A DNA stretch of 24,000 bases from Pyrococcus abyssi GE5 (GTDB taxonomy: Archaea > Methanobacteriota_B > Thermococci > Thermococcales > Thermococcaceae): the NCBI RefSeq assembly GCF_000195935.2, contig NC_000868.1:1437742-1461741 (forward strand). The letters run 5' to 3'. Both the position numbers and the translations under genes were made by a program. The notes beneath the pieces are model-generated. The model saw only the letters and a list, made by a program, of their open reading frames with translations, was not told the origin of the DNA and made no database searches. Shown in pieces: positions 5,581-11,632 of this stretch. How positions within the stretch are numbered: the stretch's first letter is position 1; the number at the start of each line of letters is the position of its first letter.

Positions 5581-5619
5581 AGCATCCAAAGCACAATTTA
5601 ATTAAATTTGGTGAGCAAA

Positions 5620-6066
5620 ATGGTAAACCTCTCAATGTTCTCAACCCAATCTTCAACTATTCTTGGAAACGATAGAAGATTAATGGTCATCGAATACTTG
5701 AAGAGTCATAGCGGAGAGGCCGAGATAAGCGAGCTCGTGGATTACATATGCAAAAGCGAGGGAAACGAAAGAAGAAGGCACAGAAAAAGCGTTTATGTTA
5801 GCTTAGTTCAAACACATCTCCCAAGGCTTCAAAGGGAAGGCATCGTAAATGTGAAGAGGAGTAGGGTGTACCTGCTCGATGTTCCCTCCGAGGTTCATGC
5901 TTTCATAACGATAAAGAACGCGAAGAGGAATATGTGGCCGATAGTCTACCTGATTTTCTCGGCCGTTGCATTGTCTACATCGCTGTTAATAGCGAGCTCC
6001 GAGGGAGTGATATTCTCTTTGTTCCTACTCGCATTGGCTGTACTCCATTGGGTGCTAACTAGCTAA
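5620..6066 (+). CDS. Membrane-anchored winged-helix (ArsR-like, DUF7344-like) putative transcription regulator
   Basis: The track ORF starts at TTG 5608. ATG 5620 follows GGTGA at 5-nt spacing. The N-terminal ~95 aa (ILGNDRRLMVIEYLKSHSGEAEISELVDYI...RKSVYVSLVQTHLPRLQREGIVNVKRSRVYL) match, from memory, the pattern of archaeal wHTH proteins with the 'sLyqtHLPkL' recognition region. The C-terminal ~50 aa form two hydrophobic helices. Confidence 0.7.
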   Translation: MVNLSMFSTQSSTILGNDRRLMVIEYLKSHSGEAEISELVDYICKSEGNERRRHRKSVYVSLVQTHLPRLQREGIVNVKRSRVYLLDVPSEVHAFITIKNAKRNMWPIVYLIFSAVALSTSLLIASSEGVIFSLFLLALAVLHWVLTS

Positions 6067-6100
6067 TTCTCCTTCAGAATTATAGTTTTACGTTCCCTAA

Positions 6101-6110
6101 CTTTTATTTT
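6101..6110 (+). terminator. Oligo-T tract (CTTTTATTTT) downstream of the wHTH gene
   Basis: Archaeal terminators are typically T-runs. This one is 35-44 nt after the stop at 6064-6066. Confidence 0.3.
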
Positions 6111-6143
6111 AGAAAAACTGAGCTCCAACTCTATCCCTCTAAT

Positions 6144-6164
6144 ATGGTAATCAGGGGTTACCAT
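6144..6164. promoter_or_regulatory. Palindrome ATGGTAA-N7-TTACCAT upstream of the secreted-protein operon promoter
   Basis: Read directly. 7-bp perfect arms, about 20 bp upstream of the TATA-like CTATATAC. Confidence 0.3.
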
Positions 6165-6183
6165 CATGGAAAGCTGAAACTAC

Positions 6184-6191
6184 CTATATAC
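6184..6191 (+). promoter_or_regulatory. Candidate TATA box (CTATATAC) of the TasA-like operon
   Basis: Preceded by purine-rich GAAACTAC. The expected TSS is near 6215, which argues against the track's TTG start at 6212. Confidence 0.4.
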
Positions 6192-6247
6192 AACTTCAAC
6201 TCTACTCTTGGTTGAGCCCTCACATGGGGGGCTCAGTTGACCAGGAG

Positions 6248-6853
6248 ATGGAAAAAGTGAATAGATATCTACTTGCCATATTTGGCCTTGTGGCCACATT
6301 TGGTCTCGTACTTGGAGTCGGGGCCAATTTTAGGGACTACAACGCAAGCAGGAGCGTCCACTGGGACATAGTTGCCGACGACTCGGAGCTAATTGACTTG
6401 ACTCCGATTCAGAACTACTCGTACATAGATGAAAACGGAAAGCTCGTGATAGACTTTTCACCCGGTAACCCCAACTATCCAGGCTATGGAAACGGGGTAA
6501 GTCCAAGTAGTGAGTACAACTTCGACGAGGTATTCGGAGTTAGTAACCACCTATGGGAGAACCTTCCTATAGTGGTTGAGATAAACTCCACAAACTCACA
6601 CATAGAGCTTTACGGGGCAGATGGAAACGTGTACTCAGCCTATGACGGAAACTTGGCTAGTGCAAGCGACTCAGCAAGGGACTGGGTTTGCTTTGTAGTT
6701 CAGCCCGAAGACATGGTTAAGGTAGGAATGGACCTTTCAGCAAACGGCGACTCACCTGGAGACACCTGGACTGGAAGTTTGAAGATCAGGGCCTACAGGC
6801 TTGGCACCGAGCCTGCTTACCTAGTGGGCAAGTGCGGGCAGGGGCCTATTTGA
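6248..6853 (+). CDS. Secreted TasA/AbpA-like (DUF1102-like) putative fibre subunit, paralog 1
   Basis: The N-terminal hydrophobic segment ends in VGA|NFRDYNASRS. The protein is roughly 60% identical by eye to the next ORF over about 65 residues (DDSELIDLTP..NGKL...YPGYG.G.S..S.Y.F.E.F.VSN.LWEN). Start is ambiguous: ATG 6248, or GTG 6257 (AGGAG RBS 9 nt upstream), which gives MNRYLL parallel to MNKLF of paralog 2. Family assignment is from remembered sequence patterns, not a search. Confidence 0.75.
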   Translation: MEKVNRYLLAIFGLVATFGLVLGVGANFRDYNASRSVHWDIVADDSELIDLTPIQNYSYIDENGKLVIDFSPGNPNYPGYGNGVSPSSEYNFDEVFGVSNHLWENLPIVVEINSTNSHIELYGADGNVYSAYDGNLASASDSARDWVCFVVQPEDMVKVGMDLSANGDSPGDTWTGSLKIRAYRLGTEPAYLVGKCGQGPI

Positions 6854-6867
6854 AGGAGGTATGAGAA

Positions 6868-7395
6868 ATGAATAAGTTGTTTGGAATTGCCCTGTTCCTT
6901 GCAGGGCTTATGTTGGCGGTTGGCGCTGGAGCCAACTTTAGGTACTTCGAGGCAGATAGGGACATGACAGTCGCGATAGTAAGCGACGATAGTGAGTTAA
7001 TAGACTTAACCCCAGTACAGCCTTACGTATACCTAAACAACGGAAAATTGACAGTTGAGATATCGTCCGGACACCCTGAGTATCCAGGATACGGCGATGG
7101 ACTTAGCACAGACAGCCTGTACGTCTTTGAAGAGATGTTTAACGTAAGCAACGAGCTTTGGGAGAACGCCGGCCAGGACTACCCGATATGTGTCACCATA
7201 AAGGCACAATTACCAGTAAAAGTATTCGCCGGAACTTACGACAGCCCGATAGCGGGACCCGACGATACTATCAGCTTTACAGTGTACCACGGCCAGCCCG
7301 TTCCAGTTGGAATGATCTTTGACAACACCGGACTAGACCTAGGAGGGCACCAGATACAGCTAGACATAAGCGCTGTTGCCGGTGAGTGCGAGTGA
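6868..7395 (+). CDS. Secreted TasA/AbpA-like (DUF1102-like) putative fibre subunit, paralog 2
   Basis: GGAGGT RBS 7 nt upstream of the ATG. The signal-like N-terminus MNKLFGIALFLAGLMLAVGAGA|NFRYFEADRDMTVAIVSDDSELIDL resembles the 'GAF..v.AeRtvsv..adD...L.L' N-termini I recall for haloarchaeal TasA-like/DUF1102 proteins and the bacterial SipW-cognate signal class. Confidence 0.8.
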   Translation: MNKLFGIALFLAGLMLAVGAGANFRYFEADRDMTVAIVSDDSELIDLTPVQPYVYLNNGKLTVEISSGHPEYPGYGDGLSTDSLYVFEEMFNVSNELWENAGQDYPICVTIKAQLPVKVFAGTYDSPIAGPDDTISFTVYHGQPVPVGMIFDNTGLDLGGHQIQLDISAVAGECE

Positions 7396-7422
7396 AGGGG
7401 CTTCGGCTCCTTTTCAGCTTTT
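7395..7422 (+). terminator. Hairpin with TTCG loop followed by two T4 tracts, immediately after the paralog 2 stop
   Basis: AAGGGGC-TTCG-GCTCCTT forms a 7-bp stem with one G-U pair, followed by TTTTCAGCTTTT. It sits between the structural genes and the peptidase gene. Confidence 0.4.
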
Positions 7423-7434
7423 AGGTGACGAAAG

Positions 7435-8418
7435 ATGCGGGCCTCCGATTTGATTATCGACCTGGTAATCCTGGGCATAATATTACCCTCGGTTATCGGG
7501 TTCATGATGGGGAGGCCCGTGTTCGTTTCCTATGCCTACTCAGATAGCATGACGCCAACGATAAACAGATGGGACGTTTTCTTCATAAATCCGCTATCAA
7601 AAGGAGACGTTGGAGATATAATCGTCTTTAACCTCTCGGGCAAGTGGACTGTTCATAGGGTATATGCCATAACCGAAAGCGGATACATAACTAAAGGAGA
7701 CAACAACGTTGCAACGGACCAACAAGACAATAAGAATCCACCAATCCCGAGGAATCAGGTGATAGGGAAAGTCATAACGCTTGGGGGTAGACCCATAAAG
7801 ATACCTAAGCTTGGAAAGTACCTACAATCTAAGGATTCCCACTACTTGGCGATAGGATTAGTGGCCTTGGGTGGAGTAATGCTAGGCAGTAATGAGAAGA
7901 GAAGAAGGAAAAGAAGAGGAAAAGTCATTGATACTGGAACCATATACATAGCGCTTTCAGCTTTATTAGCGTTCGGAGTAGTGTTCACGGGTTCAATAGC
8001 GTGGGGTGAGATAAGCATTCCATATACATCAACATTGGCCGGAGGGCAAAGGGAAGGATGGTACCTGCCGGGAAGCGTCGTTGAGAGAAACGTAACCGTT
8101 GAAAATTACGCTAAGTTTCCTATGGTAATGGTCGTTGAAGGGGAAGACATTAGAAGGGTATTCAAGCTGGAAGGTGGAGAGGAAAGAAAGATAGAGATAA
8201 CCATAGACGTTCCAGAAGAGACGAGGGTTTACAATAAGGTCATTAAGGTTTATCCGTATTATCCGATACTTCCACTGAAGCTCATAGACTGGGCCAACTC
8301 AAAAAGCCCATACCTACCCCTGCTCATGGAGGGACTAATGGTATTCCTGGGACTGTTAGCTTTGAAGCCATTACTTGGGGAACCTGAATATATAAACCTT
8401 GGGAGATTTTGGAGTTGA
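7435..8418 (+). CDS. Type I signal peptidase, S26 family, SipW/Sec11 (Ser-His) type, fused to a ~190-aa C-terminal multi-TM plus beta-rich extension
   Basis: Catalytic boxes read directly: YSDSMTPT (Ser box), WTVHRVYAI (His box), TKGDNNVATDQQD (GDNN box). GGTGA RBS at 7424-7428. After residue ~135 come TM2, the basic loop NEKRRRKRRGK, TM3, a ~100-aa non-hydrophobic domain and a final TM. Confidence 0.85.
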   Translation: MRASDLIIDLVILGIILPSVIGFMMGRPVFVSYAYSDSMTPTINRWDVFFINPLSKGDVGDIIVFNLSGKWTVHRVYAITESGYITKGDNNVATDQQDNKNPPIPRNQVIGKVITLGGRPIKIPKLGKYLQSKDSHYLAIGLVALGGVMLGSNEKRRRKRRGKVIDTGTIYIALSALLAFGVVFTGSIAWGEISIPYTSTLAGGQREGWYLPGSVVERNVTVENYAKFPMVMVVEGEDIRRVFKLEGGEERKIEITIDVPEETRVYNKVIKVYPYYPILPLKLIDWANSKSPYLPLLMEGLMVFLGLLALKPLLGEPEYINLGRFWS

Positions 8419-8810
8419 GAAAAATAATTGGAATATTGCTAATTGCAATGGCCCTTCTAACGCTAGAGGTCGGTAGCGTCTCGAACTTTAGGGAGGCCAG
8501 CATGGAGAGGGAGGTTATAGTTGGTTATGGGGACCCTTTCATAGACGTTAGCTGCGAGACCCATGTAATTTGTTGCCATCAGATTGGAGTTATAACGGTG
8601 AAGAACAACCTGGATGAACCCATAGAGGTCTATCTCCTAAGGAAACGTTGCCACTGCACTCAAAGAACTTACATTGGAACTATAGAGCCTGGACATTCAG
8701 AAAACATCTACGTTCTCCCAGGAAATTACACTATACAGGCAGAGTGGAACAGTGGAGGGGCCAAAATAAACGTGACTTGCCCATGCATTAGGAGGGAGCA
8801 TCATGATTAA
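8409..8810 (+). CDS. Small Cys-rich secreted protein with the same N-terminal signature as the two fibre-subunit paralogs
   Basis: N-terminus ...IGILLIAMALLTLEVGSVS|NFREASMEREVIV. Seven Cys (SCETHVICCH, RCHC, CPC) and a C-terminal EHHD. Start is non-ATG (TTG 8409 or 8415) and overlaps the peptidase stop, so it is uncertain. Confidence 0.6.
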   Translation: MELRKIIGILLIAMALLTLEVGSVSNFREASMEREVIVGYGDPFIDVSCETHVICCHQIGVITVKNNLDEPIEVYLLRKRCHCTQRTYIGTIEPGHSENIYVLPGNYTIQAEWNSGGAKINVTCPCIRREHHD

Positions 8811-9720
8811 AGACAATAGATTATCGTACGCGTTCCTGGGACTCTTCGCGCTATTCCTACTACTCTCGCTAGCCTCCTACTCGAGGCCAACCAGCTTCAG
8901 CAGACAGGTGATTGAGGGTAGCATCGTCGAGGAAGGAATGCTAAAGCATGAAGGACACTTAATGAATTCAACAATCTATGGGGAATTCGCGTCCTTAGGT
9001 TATTACCCAACGAAGATCACCGATTACATCGTTGGGGACTACAGGTACAGGGTTACCCCTAAAGAAGATGGAAACTACACGCTGAAAGGCTTGGTCTCTT
9101 ACTACGTCACTAAGGGGAAGGGAAAGGTGTACCTCATAAACGAGACGATGTTCAGCTATAAAGGAAAGTTAACCAACGGAATGTTCGAGGAGAAGTTCAC
9201 GGTGAACCTAAGCAAGATAAACAAGAGAAGGAGCGAGATAAGCGAAGCTTTGAACTTGCCGAGGTTAAGTTACGAGATTAAGGTTGTTGCAGATATTGAT
9301 AGGGAAAACGGAACTTTCAGTCAAGAGATGCCCGTAATCAACGATGCCGCAAGCGGTTTAACGTACATAGACAACACGAACATAAAGAAGAGGAATGCCC
9401 TTACAAAGACCGTTAAAGAAGAGTTGAAGTTCCTTGGCATGAGGGTTTCAACCGCTAGAATAGTGTTCCCGATACTCGCGTTCATCTCGGGGGTTGTAGC
9501 TTTACTAGCTTGGGAGCCCAGGAAGAGGAAGTGGGCCATAGAAGCTAGACCCACGGGAATAGGAGAGAGGGTAATAGTCAACGACATGAAGAGCTTAAAG
9601 AAGATAGCGGGAATAGTTGGGAGTCCAATAATTCACTACGAAACTGACGGAATAAGTGTATACGGAGTTATAGATGGACACGTGCTCTACGAGTACTGGG
9701 AGATCAGGAGCGAGCCTTGA
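8803..9720 (+). CDS. Bitopic/two-TM membrane protein with a ~190-aa external domain and a ~70-aa C-terminal cytoplasmic tail (DUF5305-like?)
   Basis: GGAGGGAG RBS. The ATG overlaps the upstream stop (ATGATTAA). TM at aa ~8-26 and aa ~217-237, followed by the basic stretch EPRKRKW. The family name is only a recollection. Confidence 0.65.
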   Translation: MIKDNRLSYAFLGLFALFLLLSLASYSRPTSFSRQVIEGSIVEEGMLKHEGHLMNSTIYGEFASLGYYPTKITDYIVGDYRYRVTPKEDGNYTLKGLVSYYVTKGKGKVYLINETMFSYKGKLTNGMFEEKFTVNLSKINKRRSEISEALNLPRLSYEIKVVADIDRENGTFSQEMPVINDAASGLTYIDNTNIKKRNALTKTVKEELKFLGMRVSTARIVFPILAFISGVVALLAWEPRKRKWAIEARPTGIGERVIVNDMKSLKKIAGIVGSPIIHYETDGISVYGVIDGHVLYEYWEIRSEP

Positions 9721-11632
9721 TCCAGGCTAATAGGATTATCACTCCCGCTCCTAAGATAACCCCAAAGAGGAACACGAGCAAGTTGGACTTCCCGCTCTTT
9801 ACCTCTATAGTTTTTGTAACAGTTGTTGTCGAGTGCTTTGTCAAGGTTTTCACTTGAGTTTCAGTCTTTACCTCGGTCTTAGTTTCTGTGACCGTTAATG
9901 TTCTAGCGGTTCCATTAGTTAGGGTTATCGTTTTGGTCTCGGTCTTAGTTTTAGTCACCGTAACCGCTTGAGATGAGCCTACGGCCTCGAAGGATATCTT
10001 CGACGAGTACAACTTCACACCATAGGCTTCTAAGTACAAGGGTATCGTGTAGTTCCCCGGGCTCACGACAACTAGTTTAATGCTCTTGACGCTGGCCGGT
10101 ACGGTTACCACTCCAGAGTGGAGTGAGCCCTCGGAAAGTAAGCCCACCCCACTTGGCAAGGCCATCGTGATGTTACCTATTGGAGGATCAACGACGAAGT
10201 TTACCTCGAAGGGCTCCCCTATTCTAGTAACGTTGAGGTAACTAACACCTACGGTTACGTTGATCGCTTTAACGTTCACAATCGGGGAATTTGATGTAAA
10301 GCTAATCAGTGAGAGACCTCCACAAGCCAAGGGATAAGGAACTGGCCCTTCAACGACGAGCCTGCCTACGGTTAAATTACCCGGCTTGAGTGGAACTAAC
10401 GTGAACTTAAGCACTTCACTTTTTCCTGGAGCCAGGGACTTTATGTAAACTTCATCCCTTAAGACCTTGAAGCCATTCCCGGGCTCGAATTTTGCGATCA
10501 TACCTAAGACCTCGCTGGTTCCCTCGTTCTTAACGCTCACATTCACTGTAAAGGGCGTTAGCATCGTAACTTCTCTAGGGGCGCTAACAGTTACGTTCAG
10601 GTAAGCTAGGTATTGGGGCTTCTTTCTCTCGGTGTAGAAGGCTATGAAGTGGGCCTTCTTCCCATTATTATCTTGGGAAGTTTCTAAGAGACCTAACCTT
10701 AAACCATCGTATTCAAGGGCTCCTATGACGTCTTGACTTGCCCTTAAAACTCCCGAATGTAGCTCATTCCCGCAGTTGTTCTCTATACCTATATAAGCCG
10801 CTCCATCGGCTATGCCTTTAACCTTCACGACCAAATCTCCAACCCTAAAGGCCTTGCCCTCGTAGACCCAGAAATCCTTGGAAGGATCGTAGCTTATTGA
10901 AATGTCTAAGGCCCTAAGGTAAACCTCGAGTGAAATTATGGGATCACAAAGGTTCCCTTGCATCTCGCACCTGAAGCCGTTGTACTTAACTATGAAGGGC
11001 CCAACGTAGCCGTAGTCTCCTTCATCTATGTAATAATCCTTGCCCTCGAACTCTATGTTTAGTATGCTCTTTGATTTGTTGTTGACTATGGTCATGTTCA
11101 AACCAGCTAGGGTTAGCTTGTAATCGCCATAGGTTACGTTGCTCAAGAGCTTAAGTTCCCCGCTGAAGACCTTCGGTCTAGGTGTTATAGAAAAGCTGTA
11201 ACCATTCAGCTGGAAGGGCTTCGTATAGCTCTTCCCGCCGGTTCCGTTGGAAACCACGACCTCGTAAGAATCAACCTTAACGTCCTTTACTAGAACCTTG
11301 TAACCTCCAACAACTATGCTCTGGTTCACGAGCAAAGGGGGCAAGGTAACGTTCAAGTAGAACATCGGCTTCTTGCCCAAGAACATCTTAACAAGCTTCA
11401 CCTTAACATTCCCAACATCTTTTTCATCGCCAGGCCTCAGTGAGATGTAGCTGGTTCTGCTAGGGGTGGATACCATTAGCAAGGCTTCACCATCGAAGTT
11501 TCCGTCTTTTGGGATTATCGCGTAGTCACCGTAACTTATCTCCTCCCCTATCCCGAGCCAGCCAGTATAAGTTGAGGCCGAGACCAGTGGAAGGATGAGG
11601 ATCATTACCAGGAGCGCGATGCCCTTCCTCAT
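9704..11632 (-). CDS. Large cell-surface protein: signal peptide, beta-rich ectodomain with CARDB-like module, Thr/Lys/Glu-rich stalk, C-terminal TM anchor; last gene of the fla transcription unit
   Basis: Signal peptide MRKGIALLVMILILPLVSAS. Segment NVTVSAPREVTMLTPFTVNVSVKNEGTSEV...LAPGKSEVLKFTLVPLKPGNLTV fits the CARDB pattern. Stalk TVTKTKTETKTITL...TVTETKTEVKTETQVKT, then LLVFLFGVILGAGVIILLAWIKARS. About 14 N-x-S/T sequons by my count. The ATG lies 3 nt after the flaJ stop, with a GGGGGTG..GGAG RBS. Confidence 0.8.
   Translation of the reverse strand: MRKGIALLVMILILPLVSASTYTGWLGIGEEISYGDYAIIPKDGNFDGEALLMVSTPSRTSYISLRPGDEKDVGNVKVKLVKMFLGKKPMFYLNVTLPPLLVNQSIVVGGYKVLVKDVKVDSYEVVVSNGTGGKSYTKPFQLNGYSFSITPRPKVFSGELKLLSNVTYGDYKLTLAGLNMTIVNNKSKSILNIEFEGKDYYIDEGDYGYVGPFIVKYNGFRCEMQGNLCDPIISLEVYLRALDISISYDPSKDFWVYEGKAFRVGDLVVKVKGIADGAAYIGIENNCGNELHSGVLRASQDVIGALEYDGLRLGLLETSQDNNGKKAHFIAFYTERKKPQYLAYLNVTVSAPREVTMLTPFTVNVSVKNEGTSEVLGMIAKFEPGNGFKVLRDEVYIKSLAPGKSEVLKFTLVPLKPGNLTVGRLVVEGPVPYPLACGGLSLISFTSNSPIVNVKAINVTVGVSYLNVTRIGEPFEVNFVVDPPIGNITMALPSGVGLLSEGSLHSGVVTVPASVKSIKLVVVSPGNYTIPLYLEAYGVKLYSSKISFEAVGSSQAVTVTKTKTETKTITLTNGTARTLTVTETKTEVKTETQVKTLTKHSTTTVTKTIEVKSGKSNLLVFLFGVILGAGVIILLAWIKARS
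9872..9961 (-). repeat. Imperfect 24-nt direct repeat inside the Thr-rich stalk coding region
   Basis: CTCGGTCTTAGTTTCTGTGACCGT (9872-9895) versus CTCGGTCTTAGTTTTAGTCACCGT (9938-9961), 3 mismatches. They encode TVTETKTE and TVTKTKTE. Confidence 0.6.

Follow-up and report, generated by a model that had tools for sequence, protein, structure and literature searches.

Three proteins of a predicted Sec-dependent Tafi-like pilus operon in Pyrococcus abyssi share a fixed-register N-terminal junction motif

Within a 24,000-nucleotide window of the Pyrococcus abyssi GE5 genome (NC_000868.1, positions 1,437,742 to 1,461,741), we analysed a block of six co-oriented, tightly packed genes on the forward strand (5608-9720, Table 1), in three products of which a first-pass annotation had noticed a common N-terminal signature. 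The block encodes a DUF7344 protein, two DUF1102 (TafE-like) pilins, a TafD-like signal peptidase I, a small Cys-rich TafC-like protein (hereafter the third protein) and a DUF5305 (TafG-like) membrane protein. taf-like clusters with DUF1102 proteins, the two-domain, four-transmembrane (TM) signal peptidase TafD and the DUF5305 protein TafG were reported in Thermococcus, Pyrococcus and Archaeoglobus by the paper that discovered the fimbriae (Tafi) of haloarchaea that depend on twin-arginine translocation (Tat), which drew the P. horikoshii cluster PH0561-PH0565 and read the ~130-residue PH0562 as a single-domain TafC analogue (PMC11821415). The Natrinema TafE filament has since been solved as a strand-donation pilus (PDB 9P0A), and the DUF1102 proteins of Thermococcales and Archaeoglobales were assigned to the TafE family (PMC12337348). 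With its DUF1102 pilins bearing a signal peptide, an adjacent TafD-type peptidase, a DUF5305 gene and a TafC-like protein, the P. abyssi locus is, judged by gene content, a Tafi-like strand-donation pilus cluster dependent on the general secretory (Sec) pathway; such clusters were already described in 2025 (PMC11821415, PMC12337348), and the first-pass view of an uncharacterised system does not stand.

Table 1. Genes and junctions of the P. abyssi cluster and DUF7344 genes of related loci (slash, candidate cleavage bond)
Feature	Position	Strand	Basis
DUF7344 winged-helix protein, two C-terminal TM helices	5608..6066	+	PF24035 62 bits; TM 112-130, 133-151
DUF7344 genes in other Pyrococcus loci	L132 3257-3715; L133 3294-3734; L134 3174-3641; L135 3225-3686		
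DUF1102/TafE-like pilin 1, 201 aa, signal peptide residues 1-26	6248..6853	+	PF06510 180 bits
Pilin 1 junction G23-V-G-A26 / N27-F28-R-D-Y-N-A-S-R35	6314..6352	+	translation
DUF1102/TafE-like pilin 2, 175 aa	6868..7395	+	PF06510 176 bits
Pilin 2 junction G19-A-G-A22 / N23-F24-R-Y-F-E-A-D-R31	6922..6960	+	translation; kept in orthologues
TafD-like two-domain signal peptidase I, 327 aa	7435..8418	+	TIGR02228 66.6 bits
Small Cys-rich TafC-like protein (third protein), 133 aa, TTG start	8409..8810	+	operon-position alignment, hhalign vs DUF1102
Third-protein junction G22-S-V-S25 / N26-F27-R-E-A-S-M-E-R34	8472..8510	+	translation
DUF5305 (TafG-like) membrane protein	8803..9720	+	PF17231 34.6 bits, cut-off 29; TM segments both ends

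The segments at 6314-6376, 6922-6984 and 8472-8534 translate to GVGANFRDYNASRSVHWDIVA, GAGANFRYFEADRDMTVAIVS and GSVSNFREASMEREVIVGYGD, which align without gaps in a single register, with the junctions GVGA/NFRDYNASRSVHWDIVA in pilin 1, GAGA/NFRYFEADRDMTVAIVS in pilin 2 and GSVS/NFREASMEREVIVGYGD in the third protein each preceded by a single N-terminal hydrophobic segment. Common to all three are Gly at -4, a small residue at -1 (P1), N-F-R at +1 to +3 (P1' to P3') and Arg at +9, giving the motif G-x-x-[AS]/N-F-R-x5-R, in which Phe and Arg keep the fixed spacing F-x6-R. The shared signature is thereby confirmed, but the variable gap with which it had been written (NFR-x(2-3)-A-[SD]-[RM]) is unnecessary, as Arg +9 is present in all three proteins, the third of which had been placed out of register. 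In the six-frame genome scan that the first-pass annotation had proposed (1,765,118 + 3,444 bp), we found 448 NFR tripeptides, and those following a hydrophobic stretch and small-x-small were confined to the three operon proteins and one low-complexity junk antisense frame. When the search was relaxed considerably, to x-x-[GAS]-(x)-F-x6-R preceded by a hydrophobic stretch and with a start codon required, the genome gave 13 matches, only the same three of which combine an N-terminal signal peptide with a hydrophilic mature part. This genome encodes exactly three motif-bearing substrates, and the motif is not common among other Sec substrates, a result that by the first-pass annotation's own criterion would have refuted it had it gone the other way.

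Among relatives the tripeptide itself varies. Across some 60 related operons, near-invariance is limited to a small residue at P1, Phe +2 and Arg +9, the first position of NFR being N, T or D and the third R, S, A or V; the earlier claim of an invariant NFR holds for the three P. abyssi proteins and fails beyond them. Homologues of pilin 1 (n=101, 67 of them parsed by pattern) have Ala at P1 in 65/67, Phe at P2' in 67/67 and Arg at P9' in 64/67 parsed cases, with N or T at P1' (D or E in others) and R or S at P3'. An alignment of 48 sequences shows no variation in the pilin 1 columns A26, F28 and R35, nor does one of 27 sequences of the third-protein family in F27 and R34. On these alignments NFR reads as a local spelling of a family signature, [GAS]/[NTD]-F-x2-[YF]-x-[AS]-x-R. 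In 13 Thermococcales loci, as well as in 48 loci centred on the peptidase gene and drawn from genome collections, the junction is carried by the two upstream pilins and by the product of the gene that directly follows the peptidase. Motif and peptidase gene occur together in 48/48 of the latter loci: the 179 kb surrounding the peptidase genes contain 128 N-termini with the motif, and the 329 kb of flanking DNA contain 8, most of them spurious. Within one operon all substrates change their P1' residue together; it is N/T in Thermococcales and D in one divergent clade of Archaeoglobales, and haloarchaea lack it. The DUF1102 profile, run with Sulfolobales TafE homologues in mind, had no match in 401 sampled Thermoproteota genomes.

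The operon peptidase exceeds the TIGR02228 cut-off (66.6 versus 51.85 bits) and comprises an N-terminal Ser/His catalytic domain and a C-terminal beta domain, with three strong TM segments and one weaker one. Its S38-M-x-P-T, H74-R and G88-D-x-N...D95 elements are invariant in 12 diverse homologues, and full-length homologues are found in haloarchaea (E 1e-40 to 1e-45). A second, housekeeping archaeal signal peptidase is encoded elsewhere in the genome (C1:1408686, 142 bits) and shares only ~31% identity over 78 residues with the operon enzyme. An archaeal-type peptidase encoded among the three proteins, a housekeeping one located elsewhere and the linkage of motif and peptidase gene in every related locus bear out the earlier proposal that the three belong to one pathway with a dedicated peptidase. 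In the Halobacteriota sample, one TafD-like homologue appears to be split over two adjacent frames (G165:C1:1813714-1814701; profile positions 5-186 and 154-342); this may be a copy with a frameshift, or a pseudogene, next to an intact copy. The Tat-type subunits encoded beside TafD homologues in haloarchaea read G-[ST]-G-A-F-x6-R, with no spacer residue between Ala and Phe. These subunits match NCBIfam TafE, TafA and TafC, the small counterpart matching TafC, and the TafE-like ones also reach PF06510 (30.9 and 31.5 bits). The same NCBIfam models (NF052520-22) had no match at E<=0.1 among the proteins of the window and appear to be haloarchaea-specific equivalogs.

Pilin 2 is a paralogue of pilin 1 (37% identity, BLASTP E 3e-34), and PF06510 was the only family that matched the two pilins at E<=0.1, the TasA/camelysin family (Peptidase_M73) giving no match at that threshold. 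Structures were modelled as monomers only with AlphaFold2 (AF2). The pilin 1 model (predicted local distance difference test, pLDDT, 82) has AbpA (7UEG) as its top fold match (E 1e-4, prob 0.99), with chaperone-usher pilins, FimA among them, at ranks 2-6; the idea of a donor-strand fibre, put forward in the first pass, gains from these matches. Residues 25-34 of the model, from the junction through S34, are disordered (pLDDT <50), and a strand at 37-43 follows the invariant Arg. The 50 best fold matches of the pilin 1 model did not include the Natrinema filament structure 9P0A, and a pilin of this operon had no significant PDB sequence match; 9P0A was reached by sequence via a haloarchaeal homologue only. 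In the AF2 models the mature parts of pilin 1 and of the third protein are all-beta.

The third protein, present in 8/8 other Pyrococcus genomes searched, was without a family match in library profile scans and returned only itself from a large-database search, and its homologues were gathered from genomes and operon position. BLASTP against pilin 2 aligns residues 3-38 only. It aligns, however, with the N-terminal domain of the 250-460-residue proteins encoded at this operon position in Thermococcus and Archaeoglobus, and in the resulting 27-sequence TafC-like alignment C49, N66, W113, G116, A118 and C124 are invariant. In hhalign, the profile of this family aligns to that of DUF1102 over 137 columns with 98.5% probability (E 1.7e-15), which points to a diverged DUF1102-like pilin-type domain where the first-pass annotation had seen an otherwise unrelated protein. 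Its AF2 model consists of a helix (3-20), a disordered stretch (21-44) and a confident, complete 7-strand sandwich (45-124), for which Foldseek returned generic immunoglobulin (Ig)- and fibronectin type III-like sandwiches only (GH3 C-terminal domains, E ~1e-3, TM-score ~0.28) and no specific pilin match. Since the modelled sandwich is complete and carries an N-terminal extension, the third protein would donate the first strand, and it is most likely a donor-only initiator, tip or cap subunit, as proposed for TafC and TapA. Two of its seven cysteines, C49 and C124, are invariant, the others (C55, C56, C81, C83 and C126) being lineage-specific; the invariant pair points to a structural disulfide, the protein being an extracellular one from a hyperthermophile.

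We consider it highly probable that this is a Sec-dependent Tafi-like pilus operon whose own peptidase cuts three subunits at the junction, after which the exposed strand is donated. In such a scheme, the two DUF1102 pilins and the TafC-like protein would be exported with an ordinary-looking N-terminal signal helix, and the TafD-like signal peptidase I would cut at G-x-x-[AS]/N-F-R-x5-R, probably with the DUF5305 protein, which is proposed, by analogy with the role put forward in PMC11821415, to be its partner. Cleavage would expose the conserved N-terminus, with Phe in position 2 if the cut falls after Ala/Ser and in position 1 if it falls directly before Phe. Arg +9 would then lead into the strand R-x-V-x-[WV]-x-[IV]-V, which the next DUF1102 subunit would accept in its groove, and the small protein would donate the first strand and so start or cap the fibre. 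The motif is most likely both the place where the peptidase of the operon cuts and the lead-in to the donor strand; guided by the models, we infer that Ala, the spacer and Phe serve mainly as peptidase junction and extreme N-terminus, and that Arg +9 and the alternating V/I residues belong to the donated strand.

Experimental support comes from haloarchaeal homologues. Deletion of tafD in Haloarcula hispanica yields a larger, unprocessed TafA and no fimbriae, and mature TafA begins at Phe-30 by mass spectrometry rather than at the SignalP site (PMC11821415). The cryo-EM model of Natrinema TafE spans residues 28-215, without the signal segment (PMC12337348), and we find residue 28 to be the conserved Phe (counted on the 9p0a alignment, with RRNVL at 5-9). 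On account of the Phe-30 start, the tafD deletion and the identity of TafE residue 28, a peptidase-dependent cut at the motif, with Phe heading the subunit, can be ascribed to the homologous system. We infer that the operon peptidase, not the housekeeping one, cuts the three Pyrococcus proteins. As to the exact bond, the -3/-1 rule favours A/N-F, which would put Phe at P2' as in TasA, the alternative being a cut directly before Phe, as would match haloarchaeal TafA and TafE. In TasA, an aromatic P2' residue makes a poor substrate for E. coli LepB and goes with the dedicated SipW (PMC10269814), a finding that bears on the Pyrococcus motif as an analogy, not as a test. The private recognition code proposed in the first pass, as opposed to a donor-strand constraint, is a possible reading of the motif.

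Several points weigh against the proposed scheme. The one-residue offset between A-x-F in Thermococcales and A-F in haloarchaea leaves the scissile bond uncertain, and AF2 confidence is low over both motif and donor strand (pLDDT 47-64). Both archaeal peptidases are of the Ser/His endoplasmic reticulum (ER) type, and the housekeeping enzyme may cut these sites too. The in-step change of P1' tracks phylogeny and, not being independent evidence, is only suggestive. The filament, its processing and the mature N-terminus have been shown in haloarchaeal homologues only. We also entertained a wider claim, namely that [GAS]/(x)-F-x6-R defines a distinct TafD-cognate signal class, other than that of TIGR04088, which covers both Sec and Tat substrates and extends over three archaeal orders, and that the two-domain peptidase and the DUF5305 protein form a membrane-embedded, usher-like machine which, besides cutting at the junction, passes the new Phe-led strand straight to the growing fibre and so couples cleavage to donor-strand exchange; this we put forward tentatively, as it is more probably wrong than right by a good measure.

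Among other explanations, the N-terminus might be conserved solely to fit the DUF1102 acceptor groove, with any signal peptidase I able to cut the A-x-A-like site, no recognition code being involved, and the operon peptidase serving another role, for example as an assembly platform. The strongest post-cleavage conservation (Arg +9, the alternating V/I and DD-x-E-[LF]-I-x-L) does extend past plausible peptidase subsites, the residues at P-3 and P-1 are ordinary (A/G/S), and the Natrinema filament model starts with Phe, which is hence part of the fibre (PMC12337348). However, the H. hispanica tafD deletion leaves TafA unprocessed despite other signal peptidases (PMC11821415), all catalytic residues of the operon peptidase are invariant, the segment N-terminal to Arg +9 is predicted to lie outside the strand, and Phe at P2' is a hallmark of SipW substrates that LepB cuts poorly (PMC10269814), leaving groove fit as the sole constraint unlikely in our estimation. 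That the likeness is residual paralogy, the three genes descending from one pilin gene with the N-terminus as the least diverged part and without specific function, accords with the clear paralogy of pilins 1 and 2 and the remote DUF1102 homology of the third protein, but the latter is beyond BLAST recognition against pilin 2 except for residues 3-38, and Phe and Arg do not vary among Thermococcales, Archaeoglobales and haloarchaea, not even where a Tat signal takes the place of the Sec signal. Such invariance across three groups, with divergence elsewhere, argues for purifying selection and makes mere common descent very improbable.

The single N-terminal hydrophobic helix, in a cluster that abuts the archaellum operon, could also be taken for a signal of the type IV-pilin kind (class III), or for a membrane anchor that stays uncleaved. 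Cleavage of class III signals takes place ahead of the hydrophobic segment; the conserved site here comes after it, and the predicted fold is that of an all-beta donor-strand pilin without an alpha-helical pilin stem. Furthermore, H. hispanica tafi are unaffected by deletion of pibD (PMC11821415), and the signal segment is absent from the Natrinema filament model (PMC12337348). With the junction following the helix and the mature part all-beta, assignment to the type IV-pilin class was rejected, and we regard this explanation, anchor included, as scarcely credible.

The DUF7344 gene lies directly upstream of the cluster in five Pyrococcus genomes (P. abyssi and four others), and its product is probably the regulator of the cluster, a TafB analogue. 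A TafB-like regulator gene is said to be lacking in P. horikoshii (PMC11821415); it may have been overlooked there or may be lacking in P. horikoshii alone. The third gene begins with TTG and shares 10 nt with the end of the peptidase gene, stop included (8409-8418), and its own last 8 nt (8803-8810) belong also to the DUF5305 gene, an arrangement that suggests translational coupling of peptidase, initiator and TafG. The N-termini of some DUF5305 relatives read A/F-x6-R themselves (SVLA/FQREHVTR and SFAA/FSAPSVER, in loci L034 at ~9148 and L063 at ~6188), and that of P. abyssi does not; the resemblance could be due to chance, or TafG could itself be a substrate in certain lineages. Tail to tail with the cluster lies the gene for a 640-residue CARDB-like surface protein (9704-11632, reverse strand), beyond which are T2SSF and T2SSE genes, an arrangement seen in several Pyrococcus genomes (L132-L135). 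These two are presumably the archaellum genes flaJ and flaI, and with their recurrence near the cluster two surface-filament systems would be neighbours.

The first-pass observation is correct and its interpretation largely right. The system, the dedicated peptidase, the strand-donation mechanism and the Pyrococcus cluster were already published in 2025. As far as we have seen, the shared junction motif is not described in the text of PMC11821415 or PMC12337348, figures and supplements aside; new here are its definition in a fixed register for Sec and Tat forms and for three subunit classes, the count of three substrates and the homology of the small protein to DUF1102. A small residue followed by (x)-F-x6-R offers a simple sequence definition of TafD-type peptidase targets, of Sec type in Thermococcales and Archaeoglobales and of Tat type in haloarchaea, which can be used for counting substrates per genome and ties the small Pyrococcus protein firmly to the predicted fibre. 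Phe, Arg and the P1' spacer are the residues whose change would separate peptidase recognition from strand donation. At this locus the Thermococcales Tafi-like fibre is a prediction.

The closest known system is Tafi of H. hispanica and Natrinema sp. J7-2, with which the P. abyssi cluster shares a membrane-bound regulator, TafA/E-like DUF1102 pilins, the two-domain TafD peptidase, a TafC-like protein, the DUF5305 protein TafG and an F-x6-R N-terminus. The two differ in that the Pyrococcus signal peptides are of Sec rather than Tat type, one extra residue (N/T/D in taf-like relatives) separates the P1 Ala from Phe, no TafF-like anchor is encoded, and the TafC analogue has a single domain; fibres and processing have been demonstrated for haloarchaeal Tafi.

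The first-pass annotation had also likened the junction to the SipW-cognate signal (G-T-x-A-x-F-x-D). The operon follows the logic of tapA-sipW-tasA in Bacillus subtilis: genes for a donor-strand fibre subunit and an initiator come together with one for a dedicated ER/archaeal-type signal peptidase I, Phe stands beside the scissile bond (A/A-F-N-D in TasA, probably A/N-F-R-D here), and the strand donated, here by prediction, is the N-terminal one. As to the motif itself, pilin 1 complies with G-x-x-A-x-F-x-D (G-V-G-A-N-F-R-D), pilin 2 has Y in the last position, and in the third protein P1 is S and +4 is E. TIGR04088 (cognate_SipW; threshold 19 bits, exceeded in 2/14 control genomes) gave no match at E<=10 on the three N-termini or anywhere in the genome, and for that reason we do not file the motif under the SipW class. 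The same model does match a haloarchaeal control protein (GTSALFTDEE, 25.9 bits) beside another signal peptidase. In that locus (L121 of genome G370, ~9647-11290 on the forward and ~12564 on the reverse strand), a second signal peptidase gene and a 547-residue Tat-signal protein with a TIGR04088/TIGR04089 signal adjoin a Taf cluster, and two different private-peptidase systems, Taf and SipW-type, are neighbours. The likeness to SipW substrates thus holds for the logic and for Phe, not for class membership; with Arg +9, which the SipW motif lacks, the Taf-type junction would represent a sister class. The pilins, moreover, are DUF1102/TafE-like, not TasA/camelysin, and the operon peptidase differs from SipW by an extra C-terminal domain and a DUF5305 partner.

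AbpA of Pyrobaculum calidifontis (7UEG), the best structural match, likewise combines a Sec signal with an N-terminal donor strand, but unlike the Pyrococcus cluster its ABP operon has no dedicated signal peptidase (PMC9245690), and AbpA lacks the F-x6-R junction (AMA/TL) and differs in strand topology (PMC12337348). FimA, FimG and SafA resemble the predicted pilins described here in being Ig-like and in that the N-terminal extension of one subunit completes its neighbour. In contrast to chaperone-usher type 1 pili, however, the Pyrococcus cluster has neither a periplasmic chaperone nor an outer-membrane usher, processing would fall to the private signal peptidase, and the tip-to-base polarity of donation has been proposed to differ from that of chaperone-usher pili.

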